Assembly (NCBI GenBank): GCA_963810935.1 | Contig: CAWEPK010000005.1 | Location: 306,335-370,334 of the forward strand | Reading direction: 5' to 3' | DNA: 64,000 nucleotides | DNA from: an uncultured delta proteobacterium | GTDB lineage: Bacteria > Desulfobacterota > Syntrophorhabdia > Syntrophorhabdales > WCHB1-27 | In this document: positions 5,237-60,130 of the stretch, piece by piece | Layout of the letters: each line of letters begins with the position of its first letter | Position numbering within the stretch: position 1 is the first letter of the stretch | Translations under genes and position numbers: made by a program | The notes under the pieces: model-generated | What the model saw: only the letters and a program-made list of their open reading frames with translations | Databases searched by the model: none | Told to the model about the DNA's origin: nothing

Positions 5237-5381
5237 CAATTATTGGGGCTAGCGTCGCCCCCTCCACCGGCAAAGCCGTCGGAGCCTCCCCCTCATAAAA
5301 AGGAAGAGGCATTAAAGAAAACCACTTCCATCGGGGCTAGCGTCGCCCCCTCCACAGACCAAAGTCCGCGGAGCTTTCTCC
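5237..5381 (+). repeat. Two tandem copies (5237-5318, 5333-5381) of a REP-like double-hairpin element
   Basis: GGGGCTAGCGTCGCCCCCTCCAC-stem-AAA-stem-GGAG twice; further copies at 47655-47706 (-) and 48621-48696 (+). Confidence 0.85.
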
Positions 5382-6511: not shown

Positions 6512-6798
6512 CACGCACCTTCAAAGAAAGAGATTTTGTCTTTCGGGCCTACCTTGACTACGGCCTTTCTCCAGTCCGGCCGCTTACCCGTATGTTTTCC
6601 CAGCCGCCTCTTCTTGCCTTCTATGTTCATGACTCGCACGGAGACGACCGTAACCTTGAAAAGCTGCTCGACCGCCTTGGCGATCTCGATCTTGTTTGCA
6701 GTCCTTGCCACCTCGAAGACATACTGGTTGCTCGCGTCTTTCATGAGGGAGCTTTTTTCCGTCACTATGGGCCTTAGTATCGCGTCATACTGGTTCAT
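6511..6798 (-). CDS. rplW: 50S ribosomal protein L23
   Basis: RPIVTEKS...[14 protein letters not shown]. Confidence 0.97.
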
Positions 6799-7418
6799 GA
6801 TGACAATGCCTCTTCTATTCTTGCGAGGGCGTCGACGGTCACGACGAACTGCTCGTGCCTGATGACGTCGTATACGTTGAGCCCTTCAACCCTGAGCACC
6901 TTCGTGTACGGGATGTTCCGGGCAGATTTCTCGAGCACCTCGTCCTTCCCGTGGACGACGACGAGGGGCTTTGAGAGACTCAAGGTCTTCATAACGCCCG
7001 CGAAATTCTTCGTGCTGATCGTCCCGAGGTCGAGCTTGTCGATAACTTTCACCGCAGCGTCTGCGTACCGGCTGGACAACGCCGAGCGAAGCGCCGCCTT
7101 TCTCGCCTTTTTGGGGATTGAGACATGGTATTCCTTCGGCTTCGGGCCGAAGACTGTGCCGCCGCCCACCCATACAGGCGACGTCGAGCTGCCTGCCCTT
7201 GCCCGGCCGGTCCCCTTCTGGCGCCACGGTTTCTTTCCGCCGCCGCGAACCTGTCCGCGCGTCTTCGTCGAGGCCGTGCCCCGCCGTCTGTTAGCGAGCT
7301 GCATCACCACAACGTCGTGCATGAGGTAAGGCTTAATGTCGGCAGTCCAGACGGAGTCGCTCAATTCGACTTCCCCTACTTTCTGGCCCTGAATATTCAA
7401 GACGTCCGCTTTCGCCAT
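6795..7418 (-). CDS. rplD: 50S ribosomal protein L4
   Basis: GGGKKPWRQKGTGRARAGS. Confidence 0.98.
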   Translation of the reverse strand: MAKADVLNIQGQKVGEVELSDSVWTADIKPYLMHDVVVMQLANRRRGTASTKTRGQVRGGGKKPWRQKGTGRARAGSSTSPVWVGGGTVFGPKPKEYHVSIPKKARKAALRSALSSRYADAAVKVIDKLDLGTISTKNFAGVMKTLSLSKPLVVVHGKDEVLEKSARNIPYTKVLRVEGLNVYDVIRHEQFVVTVDALARIEEALSS

Positions 7419-7427
7419 AAGACACCC

Positions 7428-7733
7428 CTAAGACTTGATCTCCACATCGACGCCTGCCGACAACTCAAGTTTCATCAGGGCGTCCACCGTCTGCTGCGTA
7501 GGCTCGACAATATCAATAAGCCTCTTGTGCGTCCGTATCTCGAACTGCTCACGCGACTTTTTATCTATATGAGGCGAGCGCAACACACAAAATTTTTGGA
7601 TATTCGTAGGCAGGGGAACCGGACCTACAACCTGCGCCCCGGTTTTCTTGGCCGCGTCCACGATCTCTTTAACCGACTGATCGAGTAATCGATGATCGAA
7701 TGCCTTCAGGCATATCCGGATTCTCTGCCTCAT
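7428..7733 (-). CDS. rpsJ: 30S ribosomal protein S10
   Basis: [21 protein letters not shown]. Confidence 0.98.
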
Positions 7734-48620: not shown

Positions 48621-48696
48621 CAATTACTGGGGCTAGCGTCGCCCACGAGCAAAGCTCGCGGAGCCTCCCCTCATAAAAAGGAAGAGGCATTAAAGA
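48621..48696 (+). repeat. REP-like double-hairpin element copy
   Basis: Near-identical to 5237-5318 including tail CATAAAAAGGAAGAGGCATTAAAGA. Confidence 0.85.
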
Positions 48697-50527: not shown

Positions 50528-50567
50528 CATATTGTAGCACACGGAAGGGAAGCGAAAAAAGAGGCTT
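50528..50567 (+). repeat. Left 40-bp direct repeat bounding the island
   Basis: CATATTGTAGCACACGGAAGGGAAGCGAAAAAAGAGGCTT; 37/40 identical to 59366-59405. Confidence 0.85.
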
Positions 50568-51134: not shown

Positions 51135-51163
51135 ATAGGGGACGTTCGTAACTTCTGTAACTT
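51135..51163 (-). repeat. Left inverted repeat of the HUH-transposase remnant
   Basis: ATAGGGGACGTTCGTAACTTCTGTAACTT; 27/29 match to rc of 51460-51488. Confidence 0.85.
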
Positions 51164-51165
51164 AT

Positions 51166-51417
51166 TCACTGTCCACTCTCCTTCTTCACCATTTTCAGCG
51201 CCGCGACGTGAGAAACCCCTAGTTGACGAGCTATCTCAGCACGGGATATTCCTTCCTGGGAAAGGCTATGAGCAATATAGGAGCGGACGCGGGTGATCTG
51301 CCTGGTGCGGTTGTGACCCCGGTCTTTATCGTTCCTGAATATCGCGCTTCGCTCGATACCACGGGCCATCACGTGATGAACAGTACAGCAGGCGTCCAGC
51401 CGGGCTTTACGGGGCAT
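51166..51417 (-). pseudogene. Internally deleted REP-associated-type tyrosine (Y1/HUH) transposase
   Basis: N-terminus MPRKARLD...HHVMARGIERSAIFRNDKDR fused in frame to C-terminal HTH (SRAEIARQLGVS); no HUH motif or catalytic Tyr region. Confidence 0.8.
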
Positions 51418-51459
51418 CACCTCTCTCCAAGAACGGCTGTTCCAGTCAGCATATCGCAC

Positions 51460-51488
51460 AAGCTACAGAAGTTACGTACGTCCCCTAT
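51460..51488 (+). repeat. Right inverted repeat of the HUH-transposase remnant
   Basis: AAGCTACAGAAGTTACGTACGTCCCCTAT. Confidence 0.85.
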
Positions 51489-51511: not shown

Positions 51512-51539
51512 GTCACGTTAGTCAACTACGTTCCCCTAT
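51512..51539 (+). repeat. GTCCCC-type end opening the catabolic cargo
   Basis: GTCACGTTAGTCAACTACGTTCCCCTAT; first 20 bp are a perfect inverted copy of 59285-59304. Confidence 0.85.
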
Positions 51540-51643
51540 CCGTCCTCTCACGTCCTTTTGAGCTTGGGTCATTCCCGGCCTCCCTGAACATAGATGGTCA
51601 TCCCATACTACCATACCTGTCAGGCGAAGTCGTGATATTCGCA

Positions 51644-52673
51644 CTATTCTATGCCGGCAGCAGTTTCCGTGGCGTTCTCATCTTCCGGGAATACATCTTT
51701 TTCAATCGATTTTCCTGCGGGATGCACAAATTTTACCGGCTGGTATTTCCGGGCGAAGACATTCAGCTGAAACACATCGGGACGCGCATAATGACCGACA
51801 GCGTCTATCATGTGTTTGACCCCTACTATGTTGTCAAGGTTGATATCTGCATAGGCAATCTGCTCACGATCCTCCAGAGGGCCTGCAACATAATTGCTCA
51901 TGGGATCCACAATTCCCGAAATTCCGCCGCCCGCCTCCAGGATGCCCTGATTGGCCGGGTCGAGACTCAAGGTAGAATTTCAACTCTTCATCCCCCACGC
52001 ATGAGGAAGAATATGCCACATAAACTTGGCCCTCGAACGTCATGTTCCTCATTGCGACGTCGATCACTTTTTTTCTGTCCCTCGGCTGGCTCCTGAAATT
52101 TGCTCCCGGCCACATGGCTATATGGAGTTGTTCTCCCAGGCTGTATAGAGAGTACCTTGAGAGCGGCATGGAATGTTCGTAACAAATAAGCATGCCTATC
52201 CTTCCAATTGAAGTGTCGGAGACTTGCAGGCTGGTACCATCGCCCATGCCCCAGATCGTCCTTTCTTCTCCGGTGGGCATGAGTTTTCTTCTATTGATCA
52301 CCATGGTTCCCGACTCGTCGATGAGGACTTGGCTATTATAAAGGGTTGAGGAATCCTTTTCTACGAATCCCAGAGCTATCATAATCTCATTCTTCTTTGC
52401 CGCGGCCCTTATGTAATCCATCTCCGCGGACTTAACTTCCAGAGAGTTTTGGAATTGCCTTTTGAAAAGCTCAAGCTTTTTGTTGTTGTTGATCCCCATC
52501 CATATCCACCATGGATATCCCGGAACAAACGTTTCCGGAAACACAATCAGCTTGGCGCCGTTTGACGCCGCTTCTCTTGTCATAGAGATTACTTTCTCTA
52601 TCGTTCCCTCTCTGCTGAAGAGCACCGGGGCCGCGACTGTCGTCGCTATCTTATCAATTCTAGACGTATCCAT
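51644..52673 (-). CDS. Nitrilase (carbon-nitrogen hydrolase; frameshift at ~51965)
   Basis: E-K-C triad: FPETFVPGYP, RRKLMPT, LICYEH; C-terminal DAVGHYARPDVF. Confidence 0.9.
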
Positions 52674-52756
52674 TATCTCCCTCCTATAAATTGTCTTTTG
52701 AACTACCGTGGTTCAATTTCATCGGAGTACTCCCTCCCTTAGCTCGACTCCCTGCT

Positions 52757-54022
52757 CTATTCTTCGTCGAAGCGTATACCCTTCGTCTCTGGCCCGAGAA
52801 TAAGCAGGATCAGAAACACAAGGATGGCGATTCCGCTGAACACGTAAAAGCCCGCCCCAATTCCAAATTTAGAGGCGATAATGCCTACCAGAGTGGGGGC
52901 GATGACCGCACCCGAGCGCCCTAAGCCTGTGGCGAGCCCAACCCCCGTAGCCCTGGCCGAAGTAGGAAAAAGCTCTGTCGTGTAAGCCATGGCAGGACCA
53001 AAGACGCCGAGCACAAAAAAACCCGTGAGCGGACCGACCCACAGGAGGACGACAGGAGACGTGATATATCCGTAAAGAACACTGGTCACGGCGATACCAC
53101 AAAAGTAGAACGTCATAACGGGCTTTCTCCCGAATTTGTCATTCAAGAAACCACCCACCACCTGACCGACCCACGACCCTAAAACCCACAGTGCCATGAA
53201 GCCTGTCATTTTTGCCACCGTTAGGCCCCGTTGCGTCGCAAGATAAGTGGGTGACCAGATGGCGACTCCCCAATAGCACATGAGCGCCCCGATTTGAATG
53301 ACCAGCGCAGTAAGTGTATTTCTGATCAGTTTTGGTTTGAAAAGCTCTACCAGCGTAAAAGAGTTTTTGGGAACCTGTTTTTGCGCTGCCCGACTTCTCT
53401 TCCACATTTCCGATTCCTTCAGACTTTTAATCATGAAGAAACCAGTAATGACGCCAGGTACAGCGCCCATGATAAAACATATCTTCCATCCCCATTCGCC
53501 GGCTATATCCCTATAATAGAGTCCGATTGTACCTGTGACAGCAATGGCGAGGAGAAAGCCGAGAGGGTACCCGCTGTTCATGAAACCAACCATCCTACCC
53601 CGCTTCTCAGCAGGCACATGCTCCGAAAGCATCGCGAGGCCAACGGGCCATTGTCCTCCTGTTCCCAAGCCTGCCATAGCCCTCATAATGCCGAAGGAAT
53701 ATATGTTGCTGGTAAATGCCGCGAGCCCTGTGAAAATGGAGTAAACAAAAGTCGTAATCCACAAGAGCGGTTTTCGTCCTGCGTAGTCGGCAATGACAGA
53801 GGCTATGATGCTGCCTGAGGCATGACCGATCAAGAATAGGCTTCCAATTAGTCCAAGCTGTACTGTCGTCAAGTGCCAATCCATAAGTATCCAGGGCGCC
53901 ACCATTGCGAAGATCATCTGATCTAGACCGTCAAATAGCCAGCCCAACATGGTGATGGTAAAGACCACCCACATATACCTGTTCTTCTTTTCAGAAGCCA
54001 ACGATAGGTCTGATAGACTCAT
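52757..54022 (-). CDS. MFS transporter (aromatic/organic acid:H+ symporter-like)
   Basis: GWLFDGLD, ADYAGRK, ELFPTSARATG, PETKG. Confidence 0.9.
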   Translation of the reverse strand: MSLSDLSLASEKKNRYMWVVFTITMLGWLFDGLDQMIFAMVAPWILMDWHLTTVQLGLIGSLFLIGHASGSIIASVIADYAGRKPLLWITTFVYSIFTGLAAFTSNIYSFGIMRAMAGLGTGGQWPVGLAMLSEHVPAEKRGRMVGFMNSGYPLGFLLAIAVTGTIGLYYRDIAGEWGWKICFIMGAVPGVITGFFMIKSLKESEMWKRSRAAQKQVPKNSFTLVELFKPKLIRNTLTALVIQIGALMCYWGVAIWSPTYLATQRGLTVAKMTGFMALWVLGSWVGQVVGGFLNDKFGRKPVMTFYFCGIAVTSVLYGYITSPVVLLWVGPLTGFFVLGVFGPAMAYTTELFPTSARATGVGLATGLGRSGAVIAPTLVGIIASKFGIGAGFYVFSGIAILVFLILLILGPETKGIRFDEE

Positions 54023-54231
54023 ACACCCTCCTTTAGGCAAGACTGCTTTCTGCCTCCGACTCGGACTCAGCAACCGCTCTTGGCTTACCTAGCCTTCGTT
54101 CTCGTACGAGCATATTATTAGATAATATGTATTGTCAAGATTATTATCGTAACAATAATTATGCTTTATGATCTATGTACCATTGATATATCTATAGTTA
54201 TAGATGATTACTGCGAGCTCAAAGATGTTTA

Positions 54232-54260
54232 TTGCCTATTACAATACTATTAGATATAAT
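54232..54260 (+). promoter_or_regulatory. sigma70 promoter of the CoA-transferase operon with overlapping putative operator
   Basis: TTGCCT-N17-TATAAT; 54235-54254 resembles the palindrome at 56224-56243. Confidence 0.65.
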
Positions 54261-54355
54261 TGAAAAGCAATTTAAGTATCAGGCAGCAGGGCGTTTAATG
54301 AAATAGCTATCCCTCACCGGGAACACAGAACCAACAATACACTGGAGCAAAAGAA

Positions 54356-55333
54356 ATGAACGCTTACCCTGAAATAGAAGATAAACTCATGACGCTCGAG
54401 GAAGCGGTCCGAAGATTTGTTAAGGACGGCTCCCAAATCGCCCTGGGAGGCTTTACCGTCACGAGAAGCCCCATGGCCGTAGCCTACGAAATCGTCCGGC
54501 AGCGAATAAAAGACCTCCACATCGTGTGCCACTCCCCAGGACAGGCTTTTGATGTCCTGATCGGGGCCGGGTGCGTGAAAAGGGTGGAGCTCGCGTACGG
54601 AGGAAACGGAAGGTTCGCACCCACGTGCATAAGGTTCAAAAAGGCATGTCAGCGTTCCCAAATCGAATTTGAAGACTACTCAAACTACCAGATGAGCTTG
54701 AGATTTCTTGCCGGGGCCCTCGGGATGCCCTTTGTGCCTACCAAGTCGGGGCTCGGTACCGATCTTGTCAATTTTGAAGGGTTCTCAAGGGAGACGAGGA
54801 CCCTGCGCAAAATTGCTCCCAAAAAGTACTCGTTTATGCAAAATCCTTTTAATGACAAAGAAGATCGATATGTACTCCTTCCCGCCCTTAACCCGGATGT
54901 GACTATTATCCATGCCCAGTATGTAGGGGATGACGGGACCGTAAGGATGAAGGGACTCACCTTTGCGGACATCGAAGAGGCAAAATCGGCGGATACGGTC
55001 ATTGTCACTTGTGAGGAGATCGTGCCCCGATCCTTTATCAGGCATGACCCGGACCAGAACTCCCTTCCCGCATTCTTCGTCGATGCGATTATAAAGGCGC
55101 CGTACGGCGCCCACCCCACTGCATGCTACTCATTCTATGATTATGATGCAGCTCACCTCAACCTCTACAAAAAAGTTGCTGAAGACGACGCTTTGTTCAA
55201 GGAGTATCTTGATGAATGGGTGTACGGCATACCGTCTCACGACGCATATCTCGACAAGGTAGGTGGGGCAGCCCTTATCAGGATCAAGGCAAACAGCGTT
55301 CTCGGCTATACCCCCGGACTCGACAGGAAATAA
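54356..55333 (+). CDS. CoA-transferase subunit A (glutaconate CoA-transferase GctA-like)
   Basis: IALGGF, AGALGMPFVP...GLGTDL, PDVTIIHAQ, PYGAHPT. Confidence 0.9.
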   Translation: MNAYPEIEDKLMTLEEAVRRFVKDGSQIALGGFTVTRSPMAVAYEIVRQRIKDLHIVCHSPGQAFDVLIGAGCVKRVELAYGGNGRFAPTCIRFKKACQRSQIEFEDYSNYQMSLRFLAGALGMPFVPTKSGLGTDLVNFEGFSRETRTLRKIAPKKYSFMQNPFNDKEDRYVLLPALNPDVTIIHAQYVGDDGTVRMKGLTFADIEEAKSADTVIVTCEEIVPRSFIRHDPDQNSLPAFFVDAIIKAPYGAHPTACYSFYDYDAAHLNLYKKVAEDDALFKEYLDEWVYGIPSHDAYLDKVGGAALIRIKANSVLGYTPGLDRK

Positions 55334-55348
55334 GGAGGCATAAGGCTC

Positions 55349-56104
55349 ATGAATTATACAGACAACGAAATGATGGCAATAAGCGCCGGCCGGTTCACAA
55401 AAAACGGAGACATACTCTTTGCGGGAACAGGCGTGTCCATGCTTGCAGCCACGGTTGCGAAAAGAATCTATGCACCGAAGGCAGTGGTCTTCTTTGAGAC
55501 AGGCGGCATCGATCCTTCCCTTGAGGAGATTCCCATGGCGGTTGCGGACCCCAGGGTCATGAGCGGAACGGCACTCAACTCCGGCCTGATCGAGGCCTTC
55601 TCCATCGTCGGGCACAGAAGACTCCACACAATCGCCTTCCTGGGTGCAGCCCAGATCGACAGGTACGGCAATCTGAACACTACGAGCATCGGTGACTATT
55701 ATCATCCGAAGACACGCTTCTCGGGGAGCGGAGGCGCATGCGACGTCGCTTCCTTTGCTTCGGGGGTCATCACCTTCATGCAGCACCAGAAGCGAAGGTT
55801 CGTGGAGAAACTCGACTATCGCACAAGCCTCGGGTGGTATGAGGGCGGAGATTCACGAAGTACCCTCGGTCTCGCCCGGGGAGGCGCCCTCGCGGTGGTC
55901 ACGAATCTCGGTGTGCTGAAATTCGACGACAAGACGAAGGAAGCCTATCTCGCCGAATATTATCCGGGAGTAACCGTGGAAAAAATCATTGAAAATACGG
56001 GTTTCCCTCTTGATGCGTCAAAGGCGGTAGAAGCGGTTCCGCCCTCCGCTCAGCAACTTGGAATCCTGAGAGAAGAAGTGGACCCGCAGAGACTGATACT
56101 TTAG
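55349..56104 (+). CDS. CoA-transferase subunit B (GctB-like)
   Basis: FAGTG, FETGG (catalytic Glu), LGAAQIDRYGNLN, GSGGACD. Confidence 0.9.
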   Translation: MNYTDNEMMAISAGRFTKNGDILFAGTGVSMLAATVAKRIYAPKAVVFFETGGIDPSLEEIPMAVADPRVMSGTALNSGLIEAFSIVGHRRLHTIAFLGAAQIDRYGNLNTTSIGDYYHPKTRFSGSGGACDVASFASGVITFMQHQKRRFVEKLDYRTSLGWYEGGDSRSTLGLARGGALAVVTNLGVLKFDDKTKEAYLAEYYPGVTVEKIIENTGFPLDASKAVEAVPPSAQQLGILREEVDPQRLIL

Positions 56105-56115
56105 GCGGCCGGAAC

Positions 56116-56145
56116 GGGCAGGCTCGCGATTGCCCTTTCCTTTCC
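56116..56145 (+). terminator. Possible intrinsic terminator after the CoA-transferase operon
   Basis: GGGCA...TGCCC hairpin followed by TTTCCTTT. Confidence 0.4.
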
Positions 56146-56220
56146 CCGTTTGTCGGTGTAGTGCGAAAGAGGATGGCGCCTTGTCAAGATTTCCGGCGAT
56201 AGAGGCAACGAAGATTGCTC

Positions 56221-56250
56221 TTGTCTAATAGCGTTCTATTAGGATATAAT
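56221..56250 (+). promoter_or_regulatory. sigma70 promoter of the XRE regulator with palindromic operator
   Basis: TTGTCT-N18-TATAAT containing CTAATAG-N4-CTATTAG. Confidence 0.65.
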
Positions 56251-56287
56251 TAAAAGGTATCTTAAATATAATCAGAGGCGTCGCTTC

Positions 56288-56728
56288 ATGACCATAGCTG
56301 CAAAGTTGAAAAAACTGAGAAAACTTCGAGGTCTTAGCATGACGGATCTTTCGAAGGACTCAGGCGTGCACCAGACAACGATCTCCGCAATCGAAGGAGG
56401 CAAGCACAATTCTCCAGGTATTGACACGATTGAGCGGCTGGCAAAGGCGCTTCGCATTTCTCCGCTCTATTTTTTTGAGAGCAGGATCCAAACGCCTTTT
56501 GACGTTATAGAAAATATGCCTTCAGAAATAGCGGATTTTCTGCTTCAAGCTGAGTCCCTGCCCTACCTGCTTCTGAGTAAGAAAGCCCACGACGACGGCA
56601 TATCCAGCCGGACCATTGAGAAACTTCTTCATATACTTCAGGAGAACTATAGCGAGAAATTACTCACGAAGGATATCGGTGAGTCACGGGAAAGACCACG
56701 AAGGACGTTTAAGCCAAGGAAGACCTAG
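56288..56728 (+). CDS. XRE family HTH transcriptional regulator
   Basis: LKKLRKLRGLSMTDLS...TISAIEGG...PGIDTIERLAKAL. Confidence 0.9.
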   Translation: MTIAAKLKKLRKLRGLSMTDLSKDSGVHQTTISAIEGGKHNSPGIDTIERLAKALRISPLYFFESRIQTPFDVIENMPSEIADFLLQAESLPYLLLSKKAHDDGISSRTIEKLLHILQENYSEKLLTKDIGESRERPRRTFKPRKT

Positions 56729-56745
56729 ATTGGGCGGAGGTTTTA

Positions 56746-57330
56746 GTGAAAGCAAGAATCGATGACTTCTATGGCGAAATAGAATGGATATGGACGGGAG
56801 ATGCACTTTTCATCGACGCCGACCACGGCTACATAGAGGACCTCATGCGTATTTCCTCTGACGAGATTGAGGAGTTGGTGACACTGATCCACGGGGAGAC
56901 GATCGACGCTAAGAGTCAAATTCCTCAGCTCAAGGAGCTTCATCGGAGACTCAATTATAAGTACGAACAGATTTACATCTCTGATGATAATGGTGATTAT
57001 TTCAACGCTAATGGCCAAACCAACAATATCAAGGATCGGGCCTATTTTCACGAGGTGATGAAGGGGAGTACAGTCGTGAGTGAGCCGCTGATTAACAAAT
57101 CCACAAAAAATCCTATAATCGCAGTGGCTACCCCGATCAAAAACGAAAGAAGCGTCATAGGATTGTTTGGCGTTACCGTCCTGCTTGGTTCCTCTCTCAA
57201 AGGACTGAGGTTCTTGCGCGTCACGACTTGCTCTAGAAAGAAGAAAAGCAGCAAAGGAACCAACAAGTACTGCCACAGGACTGGATTAAAGAACACTTAT
57301 ACTAAGAAAGCGGTTCAGGTCTTAAAGTGA
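56746..57330 (+). pseudogene. dCache sensor-domain remnant (no TM or output domain)
   Basis: DRAYFHEVMKG...VSEPLINKSTKNPIIAVATPI...GLFGVTV motif, then degenerate tail. Confidence 0.55.
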
Positions 57331-57729
57331 GGTTTGTTACACTCACAATCCGCAAGGGGCTGCATGCCCATCATTCCAGCTTGACGGCAGCCGTATCTTT
57401 CTGCTCGCGGATTTTGACCCGAGCCAGCCGGGAAAGAGAGCGCTTTTCTCTCCCGTTCCTCCGGGGACGCCATAGGGACACCCGTAAATACATAAATAAC
57501 TCACAGCTCATACCCATTCTCACGGGCTATTTTCTCTCCCCTTTCAACGGAGTATCCCACCGCAGGCGCAGTCACATGGGGGACATCCTATAGTTCCTCC
57601 TGTCAAGCATAAAGGGCAGTCATAACGATCTTGACGGCTTAGCTCTCCGGCCCCTTCACGCGGGTGCACCTCGCCTCTCGCCTTGTTCCGCGCTCCTTTC
57701 ATCGGTCGGCGAGTCTCTCACCTAAAAGC

Positions 57730-57880
57730 GAATCCGCGCCTCAGCGTTATCAGTATCCGGCATGCACAAAGGCCGCCTATCATCCTTTATCCAGGCTGCA
57801 TGATTCAGGTGGGAGGCCCAGGATTGTCCCACACGGGGTCTTACCGCCCCTACGTTGTTGCTCGGGCTCTCCCGCCGGAT
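57730..57880 (-). ncRNA. Predicted IS110 bridge RNA (target- and donor-binding loops); ends approximate
   Basis: Guides CAACAACGU/GGGAC match the target; UAAAGGAUG/AUAAC match the circle junction. Confidence 0.75.
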
Positions 57881-57898
57881 GGTAAATCTTTTATAACC

Positions 57899-59161
57899 CT
57901 ACTCTATGCACCCCGGATTGAATACCTCCTTCTTCTTCATGAGCGTCCAGGCGATGACTAGTAGCTTCGCCGCAAGCTTTATCCTCATCTTCATGCCTAT
58001 CCCCTTCTCTTTCTCCCTGCCTTTGAGCTTGTTCGTGAAGTAGGTCATGAACTGTCTATTTCTGGTGGAGGCGATGAGCGCAGCCTGGTAGAGGCCGTAG
58101 CGGAGGTCGGCTTTTCCCCTTTTTGAAATGACGGGTGCGACTTCTGTCCTCTTCCCGCTCCTATCCGCACTGAGATCGAGGCCGGCGAGCTTCAGCACCT
58201 GTCTGTGGTTCTCGAACCTGTAGGGATCGCCTAACGCCCCTATTACCTTCGCAGATATGTCGGGGCCGAAGCCGGGAATGCTCATAAGGAAGGGGTACTC
58301 GGCAAACCTCCTGCATACTTCCGCAATTTTCCTGTCCGTCTCCAGTATCATGATATGAAGGCCTTTAAGTCCGTCGAGGAGGGTTGATGCTTCGAAGGCC
58401 ACGGATGGATGGGCGGCGCAGCCTATAGAGACGGCCGCTTTCGAGTGGATCTCCTTAAGACGGCTTACCTGATTTGAGTTTCCAGGGGAGACCATGCGAA
58501 CTAACTCCAGGAACGTGAGGCCCGCAATCTTCTTCGGGTTGAGACAACGGACAAGATCGGAGCCTTCGGCATTATCGACGTAGGCATCCATTTCAGGGAA
58601 GTACTGGGCTATGAGATGATTCCTGATCCTGACCTTGTAGCCCTGCTGGAATTTTTTGAGTCTTCGTTTCAGAGAGAGCAGGCTCCGGAGCTCTCTGAGG
58701 TCGAACGAAGGAAGCTCATAAAAGAGGAACTTGCCCTGGATAATGAGATCGGCCACATTGGCGGCGTCCTTCGTGTCATTCTTGTCCCACCTGCCGTCTA
58801 AGAGCTCGCGATTCTTCTTGACCGCGGTGCCGGCGACGAGCACGACATGTTGACCGTGTTCGATCAGGTACTCTCCGAGTGGTTTGTGGTAATCCGAGGT
58901 AGGTTCCATTCCGAACACGACGTTTGCAAGACTGTGCTGCTTCTTGAGAATGTCCGCCTGGAAGATAAGCCTCTCGAAGCCCTCCTTGCTGTTGTCGAAG
59001 ACCAGCCTGTGCAGAAGGGTCTTACCAGCAGTGGTGCCGAAGAAGGCATGATGGCGCTCTTTGGCTATGTCCGTGCCCGCCACCAGATACTCCGTCGACC
59101 CACGAATCTCGCGCTTCAATTGACGAAACTCCCTAAGCCTGCTATCATCGGTTCTGTCCAT
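57899..59161 (-). CDS. IS110 family transposase/recombinase
   Basis: DEDD: GTDIAK, GMEPT, KNDTKDA; SIPGFG; DRSGK; ISKRGKADLR. Confidence 0.95.
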   Translation of the reverse strand: MDRTDDSRLREFRQLKREIRGSTEYLVAGTDIAKERHHAFFGTTAGKTLLHRLVFDNSKEGFERLIFQADILKKQHSLANVVFGMEPTSDYHKPLGEYLIEHGQHVVLVAGTAVKKNRELLDGRWDKNDTKDAANVADLIIQGKFLFYELPSFDLRELRSLLSLKRRLKKFQQGYKVRIRNHLIAQYFPEMDAYVDNAEGSDLVRCLNPKKIAGLTFLELVRMVSPGNSNQVSRLKEIHSKAAVSIGCAAHPSVAFEASTLLDGLKGLHIMILETDRKIAEVCRRFAEYPFLMSIPGFGPDISAKVIGALGDPYRFENHRQVLKLAGLDLSADRSGKRTEVAPVISKRGKADLRYGLYQAALIASTRNRQFMTYFTNKLKGREKEKGIGMKMRIKLAAKLLVIAWTLMKKKEVFNPGCIE

Positions 59162-59365
59162 AGAAACCTCCTTGTTAAGGGTAGTGTGATGTTGGCGCAT
59201 CACTTCCCGCATCTTAACAGGAGGTTTCTCTTTTATGGAAGAAACTGGTGTTCCTTCGACAACTCCCGGTCATGGGAATATATAACGTAGTTGACTAACG
59301 TGACTCGTCCTCCCTTCTCTGCATGATCTTTGACACGCCCGAGGTGCTGATGCCCAGATTCGCGC

Positions 59366-59405
59366 CATAGTGTAGCACACGGAAGGGAAGTTAAAAAAGA
59401 GGCTT
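59366..59405 (+). repeat. Right 40-bp direct repeat bounding the island
   Basis: CATAGTGTAGCACACGGAAGGGAAGTTAAAAAAGAGGCTT. Confidence 0.85.
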
Positions 59406-59484: not shown

Positions 59485-60130
59485 TTACGCCCTCTTGACC
59501 GCCTTTTTCAGAATGAGGTAGCCGTTCCTCGGGCCCGGCACTGCGCCGCGGATCATTACCAGATTCGTGTCGCCGCGTACGTCGACAACTTTAAGGCTCT
59601 GCACCGTGACTTTCCGGTTGCCCATGCGGCCCGCCATCTTCCGGCCTTTCAGGGTCCTACCGGGGGTCGTGTTATTACCTATCGATCCGCCGTGGCGGAA
59701 AAACTCGTGCGTCCCGTGGCCTCCGGGGGCGCCCGAGAACTTGTGCCTCTTGATTACGCCTGCGGTTCCCTTTCCAATAGAGACGCCCGTCACATCGACA
59801 AAATCGCCCGGCTTGAACAGGTCGATGGGCACCTCGCTGCCCGCCTCGAACCCGTCCAGTTCGTCGCCCTTTACCCTGAATTCCTTCAGCCTTACCATCG
59901 GAGGAAGGCCTGCTTTCTTGAAATGGCCCGTGCGGGGCTTGTTGGCCCTGGAAACCTTCGCGATCTCGCCGAAACCGAGCCTGCACGGCGCTGTAGCCGT
60001 CGCTCTCGACGCTCTTCTTCTGCACGATCAGGCAGGGGCCTGTCTTTACAACCGTAACGGGGATCATGACGCCGTTTTCGCCGAAAATCTGCGTCATTCC
60101 CAACTTCTTACCGAGCAACCCGATGGCCAT
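59485..60130 (-). CDS. rplC: 50S ribosomal protein L3 (one extra base at ~59980)
   Basis: [49 protein letters not shown]. Confidence 0.96.

Follow-up and report, generated by a model that had tools for sequence, protein, structure and literature searches.

Recombination guided by bridge or seek RNAs was described in 2024 and is under development for genome editing. Insertion of IS110-family elements into the ends of other transposons has long been known, and the IS4321/IS5075 elements and the attC-targeting members of the IS1111 group insert into the ends or recombination sites of other mobile systems, with their RNA region downstream. All of these belong to the true IS1111 group and have a shorter transposase, subterminal inverted repeats and a reversed guide order. 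Here we describe an insertion sequence (IS) of the IS110 family in a 64,000-nt stretch of DNA, hereafter the window, from an uncultured delta proteobacterium (GenBank assembly GCA_963810935.1, contig CAWEPK010000005.1, positions 306,335 to 370,334). Comparison with its relatives indicates that it is very likely an intact and probably recently active element, in which a 420-amino-acid (aa) DEDD/serine recombinase is combined with a downstream two-loop bridge RNA of about 173 nt and a target resembling a repetitive extragenic palindromic (REP) sequence (Table 1).

The best-described counterparts are IS621 of Escherichia coli, with its 177-nt bridge RNA, and ISCro4, both of which encode a DEDD and serine recombinase homologous to the one found here. 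In the available text on IS621 (PMC11208160), a single RNA carries a target loop and a donor loop, the left guides read like the top strand and the right guides are complementary to it; the target follows a layout of 7 + 2 + 3–4 nt, the 2-nt core is duplicated and the natural targets are REP sequences. The predicted features of the present element are alike in all these respects. The two differ in the position of the RNA, which is downstream of the gene here and upstream in IS621, and in the core, which is GT here and CT there. The recombinase of 420 aa is also longer than the solved chains of IS621 and ISCro4 (328–341 residues). Further differences from IS621 are the outer stem that encloses the entire RNA and the existence of an alternative pairing, and the element described here is known from sequence alone.

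The seekRNA of ISEc21 resembles the present RNA in that a bottom-strand match lies 5′ of a top-strand match, and its target is likewise inside another mobile element, in that case IS3-family transposase genes; ISMch6, a relative of ISEc21, shows natural retargeting (PMC11187229). In ISEc21, however, the non-coding region precedes the gene, and the active RNA of 58–74 nt comprises the target part only, whereas here the region is downstream and a donor loop is evident. ISPpu9 and ISPpu10 of Pseudomonas putida share a fixed position within REP sequences and a dinucleotide at both boundaries; ISPpu9 differs from the element here in having its bridge RNA in a long 5′ leader, an AG core and, in the available text, no junction promoter (PMC12288879). 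The small RNA Ssr9 downstream of ISPpu9 was considered as an analogue of the RNA described here and was rejected, since Ssr9 is dispensable and its layout is unrelated.

Read along the minus strand, the locus consists of the flank GTCACGTTAGTCAACTAC, GT, the element body from TATATA.../TATATATTCC... to ...CTATAGGAT (ending at 57585), a second GT and CCCCCAT. The dinucleotide GT is present on both sides of the inserted element and only once in uninterrupted sites. The initial annotation, made from the sequence of the window, had proposed an IS110 element with a GT core, and the boundaries, the intact transposase gene and the duplicated GT bear this out; every motif that it listed was found where it had been placed. 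Its further claim that excision restores an intact end also holds, as the rejoined site is a real repeat with a 1-mismatch copy at 51512-51535, and another site in the genome, TAGTCAACTACGTCCCCCAT, is identical to it for 20 nt. The termini GTTATATAT... and ...TATAGGAT are common to the relatives. Left ends, anchored by BLAST, begin with GTTATAT in 12 of 13 relatives, and all 7 right ends examined (6 distinct) have TTGACAGGAGG..TATAGGAT directly before GTCCC. When the search required only an ...AGGAT end and GT, the right flank was GTCCC in 26 of 27 distinct loci, and the left flank varied. A −35-like TTGACA near the right end (57601..57606, minus strand) is kept in 7 of 7 right ends of relatives, and circularisation would place it 18 nt from the TATATA of the left end (59284-59279). 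Such a TTGACA-N18-TATATA promoter at the circle junction is a prediction modelled on IS621 and ISEc21, for which junction promoters are reported in the available text of PMC11208160 and PMC11187229.

The non-coding end downstream of the transposase gene measures 314 nt, against about 125 nt upstream. A long downstream non-coding region is the usual IS1111 layout (PMC11187229; available text of PMC11208160), and it would suit an element of the IS1111 type whose seekRNA is also of that kind, encoded downstream and beginning with the match complementary to the top strand. Such an assignment is very unlikely in view of the transposase, whose 420 aa compare with 330–350 aa in IS1111 and 395–455 aa in the IS110 subgroup (PMC11187229), and of the guides, because the one pairing with the bottom strand lies 5′ of the one pairing with the top strand, as in IS621 and ISEc21, whereas four IS1111 members that have been tested show the reverse order (PMC11187229). 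Moreover, the element has no 7–17 bp subterminal inverted repeats close to both ends. Its best inverted repeat is the 8-bp CCTCCTGT, at a distance of 62 nt from the left end but only 11 nt from the right, and the ends themselves carry only TAT...ATA around the donor core, comparable to the 3-bp end pattern of the IS110 group in the available text of PMC11208160. The IS110 group usually encodes its RNA upstream of the recombinase gene, but a downstream non-coding region is also known for some groups of the IS110 family, a minority of its elements (Siddiquee et al., PMC11187229). The initial annotation had pointed to IS1111-type elements as carriers of a downstream RNA; the present element is not of that type: transposase length and guide order are of the IS110 type, and only the position of the RNA is unusual.

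Table 1. Coordinates of the IS110-family element, its predicted bridge RNA and its insertion site within the window
Feature	Position	Strand	Remarks
IS110-family insertion sequence	57585..59286	-	1702 bp counting one GT core copy
GT core	59286-59285 (left copy); 57584-57583 (second copy)	-	second copy outside the element
Left half of target, REP-like repeat GTCACGTTAGTCAACTAC	59287..59304	-	3′ end of a Y1-transposase gene remnant
Right half of target, core GT + CCCCCAT	57576..57584	-	CCCCCAT = 57582-57576
Transposase/recombinase gene, 420 aa	57899..59161	-	ATG at 59161; ribosome-binding site AAGGAGG at 59173-59167, 5 nt upstream
Hairpin in the 5′ untranslated region	59163..59229	-	pairs AAACCUCCUGUUAAG with the ribosome-binding site; −43.7 kcal/mol
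Predicted bridge RNA core, ~173 nt	57706..57878	-	21-193 nt past the transposase stop codon
Outer stem closing the whole RNA	57878-57871 with 57713-57706	-
Left target guide + core guide CAACAAC-GU (CAACAACGT)	57852..57860	-	same sense as target top strand
Hairpin GGGGCGGTAAGACCCC inside the target-binding loop	57835..57850	-	A2 columns 38-41 with 53-56
Right target guide GGGAC	57826..57830	-	complement of core + right flank GTCCC
Donor-binding loop + closing stem	57738..57796	-	GCCU 57796-57793 with AGGC 57741-57738
Left donor guide, AUAAAGGAUG region	57781..57791	-	predicted to pair with right end ...ATAGGAT-G
Donor motif TAAAGGATG of the initial annotation	57781-57789	-	confirmed in the sequence
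Right donor guide AUAAC	57746..57750	-	complement of core + left end GTTAT

The recombinase matches Pfam DEDD_Tnp_IS110 (PF01548; 3.9e-25, profile positions 1-155 of 155) and Transposase_20 (PF02371; 1.9e-19), and scores 176 bits against NCBIfam NF033542 'IS110 family RNA-guided transposase' (cut-off 140). Its similarity to the transposases of IS621 and ISCro4 in the Protein Data Bank is only distant (E 1.9e-12 and 1.6e-10, respectively). In a local alignment to the IS621 chain, the E of GMEPTS, the D..D of NDTKDA and the S of RSG face IEATG, TDTVDA and ESG, and E86, D129, D132 and S335-G336 line up with the E, D, D and SG of IS621. The first aspartate, D31 (GTDIAK), lies beyond the reach of this alignment and was assigned by motif alone. 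The assignment of D, E, D, D and the SG serine uses what we take to be the catalytic residues of IS621. A maximal open reading frame (ORF) of 437 aa (57899-59212) was rejected as the protein, the start behind AAGGAGG being more likely; protein queries spanned 57899-59164, one extra residue that left the results unaffected. Among the relatives listed, most transposases measure 420–424 aa; some are called longer, the longest at 468 aa. The leader of the gene folds into a hairpin (z = −4.7) that none of 200 shuffles equalled in stability, and its AAACCTCCTGTTAAG block is conserved in relatives. This hairpin probably serves translational control of the transposase.

Because one sequence can show neither an RNA nor guiding, and because the folding energy of the element's own sequence is unremarkable, we collected relatives. 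Scanning one genome per species gave 120 loci, the best 80 of which were kept (47–85% identity); the non-coding end itself was matched in 24 of 61 related genomes, own genome counted. The distance from the stop codon to the start of the RNA differs among relatives, which made a MAFFT alignment of the whole downstream region unusable, and the RNA alignments A1 and A2 (58–59 relatives) were anchored on GGGACAA. Downstream of the stop codon, the relatives share a conserved block of ~175 nt with one short hypervariable segment, at the position of CAACAAC. RNAalifold recovers the target-loop stem, the hairpin and the donor-loop stem. A specified structure of 27 pairs, imposed on the longer alignment A2 (58 sequences), pairs 92.6% of cells, against 33–49% with the partners slid by 1–3 columns; 17 of its 27 pairs change on both sides, and none of 500 shuffles reaches any of five measures. 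The target-loop hairpin is 99.6% paired, with changes on both sides at three of its four pairs, and the donor-loop stem (A2 columns 101-104/184-187) shows such changes in 23, 22 and 15 sequences at three of four pairs. Compensatory changes support two extra helices, the outer stem and a CUCAC/GUGAG helix around the donor arm (AU 33, GC 11 and UA 11 at one pair). Five helices are held paired by compensatory changes, and the hairpin loops differ in length and sequence among relatives while the stems persist.

The window contains no Rfam family at gathering score; an RT-19 match within the coding region (E 3.8) is at chance level and was discarded. A promoter and terminator scan of the linear element returned nothing for the RNA. 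About 40 nt 3′ of the RNA, most relatives carry a AGGAGAnGUGCGC-like motif (about 57660-57690, minus strand; A2 columns about 275-290), which resembles a ribosome-binding site and GUG and is followed by no conserved ORF.

The target guides of the element match its site at 8/9 and 5/5 positions. Fifty-two elements, which gave 49 unique guide/flank pairs, were used to compare guides with insertion sites (L034 was left out, and the element's own guide was read by hand; pattern extraction of guides misread 2 of 67 rows). Across positions −7 to −3, the left guide agrees with the left flank at 174 of 245 positions, against a shuffled mean of 120, and none of 20,000 shuffles reaches this value. The signal is located at positions −5, −4 and −3. 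Since kin share both guide and site, flanks were shuffled within groups of similar RNA scaffolds; in this within-clade form, 4, 33 and 62 of 20,000 shuffles reach the observed agreement at three thresholds. The left target guide thus tracks the left flank among homologous copies, the covariation for which the initial annotation had suggested looking. The right guide GGGAC is invariant in 59 of 59 aligned RNAs, and no tracking between the base 5′ of GGGAC and the sixth flank base (a right-guide extension, or 'handshake' dinucleotides) was visible by eye. When the 314-nt non-coding end was shuffled 100,000 times, a target-guide pair with the right order and spacing arose 103 times and a donor-guide pair 85 times, but no shuffle contained both. 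The predicted insertion target of the recombinase with this RNA is CAACWACGTCCC.

The donor guides match the joined element ends at 8/9 positions ungapped, or 8/8 with a bulge, and at 5/5. On the right, ATAAC or GTAAC (allowing a G-U wobble) is present in 65 of the 67 relatives' RNAs listed, and the invariant left end leaves this guide without variation to co-vary with. On the left, GGAUG or GAAUG in the RNA agrees with a GGAT or GAAT end in 59 of 61 elements; the remaining two (L009 and L024) fit after a 1-nt shift, and in one subgroup ACA occurs both in the RNA and in the element end. A left donor pairing had been proposed from the start. The match exists and the guide co-varies with the right end, but the ungapped 8/9 register is less favoured; the most likely pairing across the family joins AUA(AA)GGAUG to ATAGGATG with a 2-nt bulge, following the pattern AUA(NN)GGAUG/ATAGGAT-G. 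Taken with the covariation of the stems, the way in which target and donor guides co-vary with their partner sequences in the relatives upholds the two-loop bridge RNA that had been read from the single sequence.

Several results weigh against an RNA-guided reading. Folding of the single sequence is no better than that of shuffles (z = 0.03 for the whole end and −0.10 for the RNA core), and the minimum-energy fold of the own sequence lacks the two loops. A competing lower stem of the target loop (A2 columns 9-15/82-88) is equally well paired and hardly co-varies; two RNA conformations, one with the long target-loop stem and one with the outer stem and the CUCAC/GUGAG helix, are possible, as is a conformational switch. 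Across relatives, guide and flank differ at about 29% of the variable guide positions. Few evolutionary events may lie behind the covariation of the donor guide, and in the right-flank and donor surveys the left end and the GTCC anchor were found by patterns, which makes the invariance there partly a matter of construction. No RNA runs holding the stretch are listed, which is uninformative either way. The unremarkable folding, the lack of an RNA run and the conserved TTGACA, a DNA signal in the right end, would all be compatible with a right end that acts only as DNA, providing recombinase sites and parts of a promoter with no guide RNA, the guide matches being by-products. We consider this most improbable, because the five helices kept by compensatory changes are expected of RNA or single strands and not of duplex sites, the loops vary while the stems stay, and a variable block tracks a left flank 1.4 kb away, behaviour for which a DNA site would have no cause; NCBIfam also labels the family as RNA-guided.

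Other results weigh against recent activity of this bridge-RNA element. Its guide CAACAAC meets CAACTAC at the occupied site, one mismatch at position −3 that recurs in L006, a relative in another genome with ~85% amino-acid identity. Position −3 disagrees in 13 of the 49 guide/flank pairs, and a natural tolerance of mismatches there is plausible from these sequences. Two perfect CAACAACGTCCC sites in the genome (0.6 expected by base composition) are unoccupied in the assembly, and no second copy of the element was found there. Neither a circle junction nor an empty site was found in contigs of four DNA runs, which is uninformative either way; one contig that looked like an empty site proved to be a paralogous intact repeat (5 differences). 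These points could describe a silent relic, intact in appearance and no longer moving in its host. We regard a relic as unlikely, as the 420-aa frame is open and both ends and all four guides are intact, as identical copies of the element are joined to other flanks in the same soil samples, and as repeated elements are usually collapsed in assemblies of metagenome-assembled genomes (MAGs).

The evidence for mobility comes from four soil-metagenome DNA runs of one study, possibly the one from which the genome was derived, in which the element is present. In individual contigs, identical element ends are found next to other flanks: at least two on the right, where divergence begins after GTCCCC, and at least two on the left, where it begins 12–18 nt into the repeat. 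Contigs carrying other flanks match the element without a single difference for up to 1795 nt. L006 has the same guide, the same flank AGTCACGTTAGTCAACTAC and the same repeat. Copies with different ends or in unrelated sites had been named beforehand as the finding that would speak against the interpretation, and L006 and the metagenome contigs keep the same motif. One low-depth contig skips 78 nt (59132 to 59211), with a 24-nt side. Among the relatives, L049 and L037 adjoin fragments of another IS110-family transposase and L038 adjoins an IS3-family element; these clustered IS neighbours look like nested or clustered insertions.

Our model of bridge-RNA function in this element follows the literature on IS621 and ISEc21 for the circle, the promoter, the processing of the RNA and the chemistry. 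Excision would produce a circle, with the TTGACA-N18-TATATA promoter created at its junction, and the RNA would be processed from a transcript that first crosses the transposase gene. CAACAAC-GU, in the top-strand sense of left flank and core, would pair with the bottom strand of the target, and GGGAC with the top strand at the core and right flank, GT-CCC. AUA..GGAUG and AUAAC would act likewise on the joined ends ..ATAGGAT-GT-TATAT... In this way the RNA may hold the circle junction and the target site together within a recombinase tetramer, and strand exchange at the GT core would leave GT on both sides of the inserted element.

The target repeat is linked to transposase genes of the Y1 (IS200-like) type. 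Base composition alone would give 0.6 uninterrupted CAACTACGTCCC sites, and the genome contains 9; it also has 20 scattered copies of the repeat at up to 3 mismatches, among 58 hits at up to 5. The form of the repeat is GTCA(CG/AC)TTAGTCAACTAC-GT-CCCCTAT, in inverted copies. An intact paralogue on another contig of the same genome (G000:C8, L102:1500-2453, minus strand) consists of a 317-aa gene with a Y1 domain (Pfam Y1_Tnp, 2.7e-8) and a C-terminal helix-turn-helix; it is bracketed by inverted GTCACGTTAGTCAACTACGTCCCCTAT, and its stop codon TAG lies inside the repeat. The left flank of the element in the window corresponds to the last 31 codons of such a gene (..LGISTSGVSKIMQRREDESR*), again with the stop TAG within the repeat. 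The L102 protein matches NF047646 (REP-associated tyrosine transposase, RAYT) over profile positions 2-146 of 146, but its 61.3 bits fall short of the cut-off of 80, and the repeat has direct sub-repeats (GTCAnn-TTA-GTCAAC) and no obvious palindrome by eye. For these two reasons we speak only of 'RAYT-like' genes and 'REP-like' repeats.

The flanks of the relatives likewise consist of two short direct sub-repeats followed by a variable heptamer. A scan of their left sides (66 of 117 ORFs within 1.5 kb, 41 loci) found a Y1 transposase gene left of the element in 4 of the 41 loci, directly adjoining it in three. The element family thus appears, from these sequences, to follow RAYT-like repeats from genome to genome; IS110-family members that target REP sequences are already known (available text of PMC12288879). 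The initial annotation had described the site as the GTCCCC ends of a cassette. Insertion in the ends of another mobile system stands, and the 'cassette ends' are better described as REP-like inverted repeats that flank Y1 genes. The 'cassette' itself was presumably the block 51512-59304, where two inverted copies of the repeat (21 nt, 100% complementary) surround ordinary genes for a nitrilase-type hydrolase, an MFS transporter, coenzyme A-transferase subunits A/B, an XRE regulator and a Cache fragment; the block carries no signs of mobility. Just outside it and beside the transposase-gene remnant lies a 40-nt direct repeat (50528-50567 and 59366-59405, 93% identical), and contigs in three metagenome runs hold the other copy of this 40-mer. 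A miniature derivative of a Y1 element is found at 51135-51488, with inverted repeats of 29 nt (93% complementary) enclosing a 97-aa ORF in which the first ~35 transposase residues are joined to the C-terminal helix-turn-helix.

Some relatives carry a second, upstream module that resembles the target loop, with a stem, the guide UUCAUCCCC-GU or UUCAACCCC-GU, a hairpin, GGGAC and a further stem, and without a donor loop. It is present in L037-L039, L104-L120 (all in G061, the complete genome of Desulfosarcina variabilis), L029/L030, L033, L021, L023 and L042/43/46/48/69; the element in the window has a single target module. The guide of the second module is conserved between elements whose main guides differ. 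In D. variabilis, where 7 copies bear the left end, there are two classes of insertion sites, each corresponding to one of the modules. The second module matches the flanks TTCATCCCC|GT at 9/9 and TTCATGCCC|GT at 8/9 positions, the main guide has GCATAGAC|GT twice, and a further flank reads ACATCACC|GT. Uninterrupted TTCATCCCCGTCCC sites number 13 at up to 1 mismatch in this genome, against 1 for the reversed control. We tentatively suggest, with slightly less than even confidence and from sequence comparison, that the target-binding module in this clade is a separate cassette that can be duplicated. If the second module is functional, these recombinases would naturally combine two target specificities with a single, shared donor loop, which would fit the activity of RNAs with only a target loop reported in the available text of 10.1101/2025.10.25.684509. 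An exact-phrase literature search, supplements excluded, retrieved no paper on two target loops.

Elsewhere in the window, only 9 nt separate rpsJ (7428-7733) from the rplD gene that follows it (6795-7418), rplC being absent from this interval, and an L3-like gene split over two frames (59485-60130, minus strand) adjoins the element. The genome has three L3 matches on three contigs, and contamination of the MAG is 7%; this arrangement of L3/rplC could be an artefact of assembly or binning, or a displaced gene. An exact 30-nt repeat occurs at 5289-5318 and 48667-48696, 43 kb apart.

The element is a well-supported natural example of the known bridge-RNA mechanism and leaves that mechanism unchanged; the second target module in its relatives is the only part that could change it. 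For the development of genome editing there is value in natural orthologues that differ in core and scaffold, and this one offers a GT core, a long recombinase distant from those of IS621 and ISCro4, and a downstream RNA with an outer stem. The 49 guide/flank pairs, together with a donor guide that exists in two states, form a natural record of reprogrammed positions and tolerated mismatches. For the biology of the family, one selfish element appears to track the RAYT-like repeats of another across genomes of the Desulfobacterota type.

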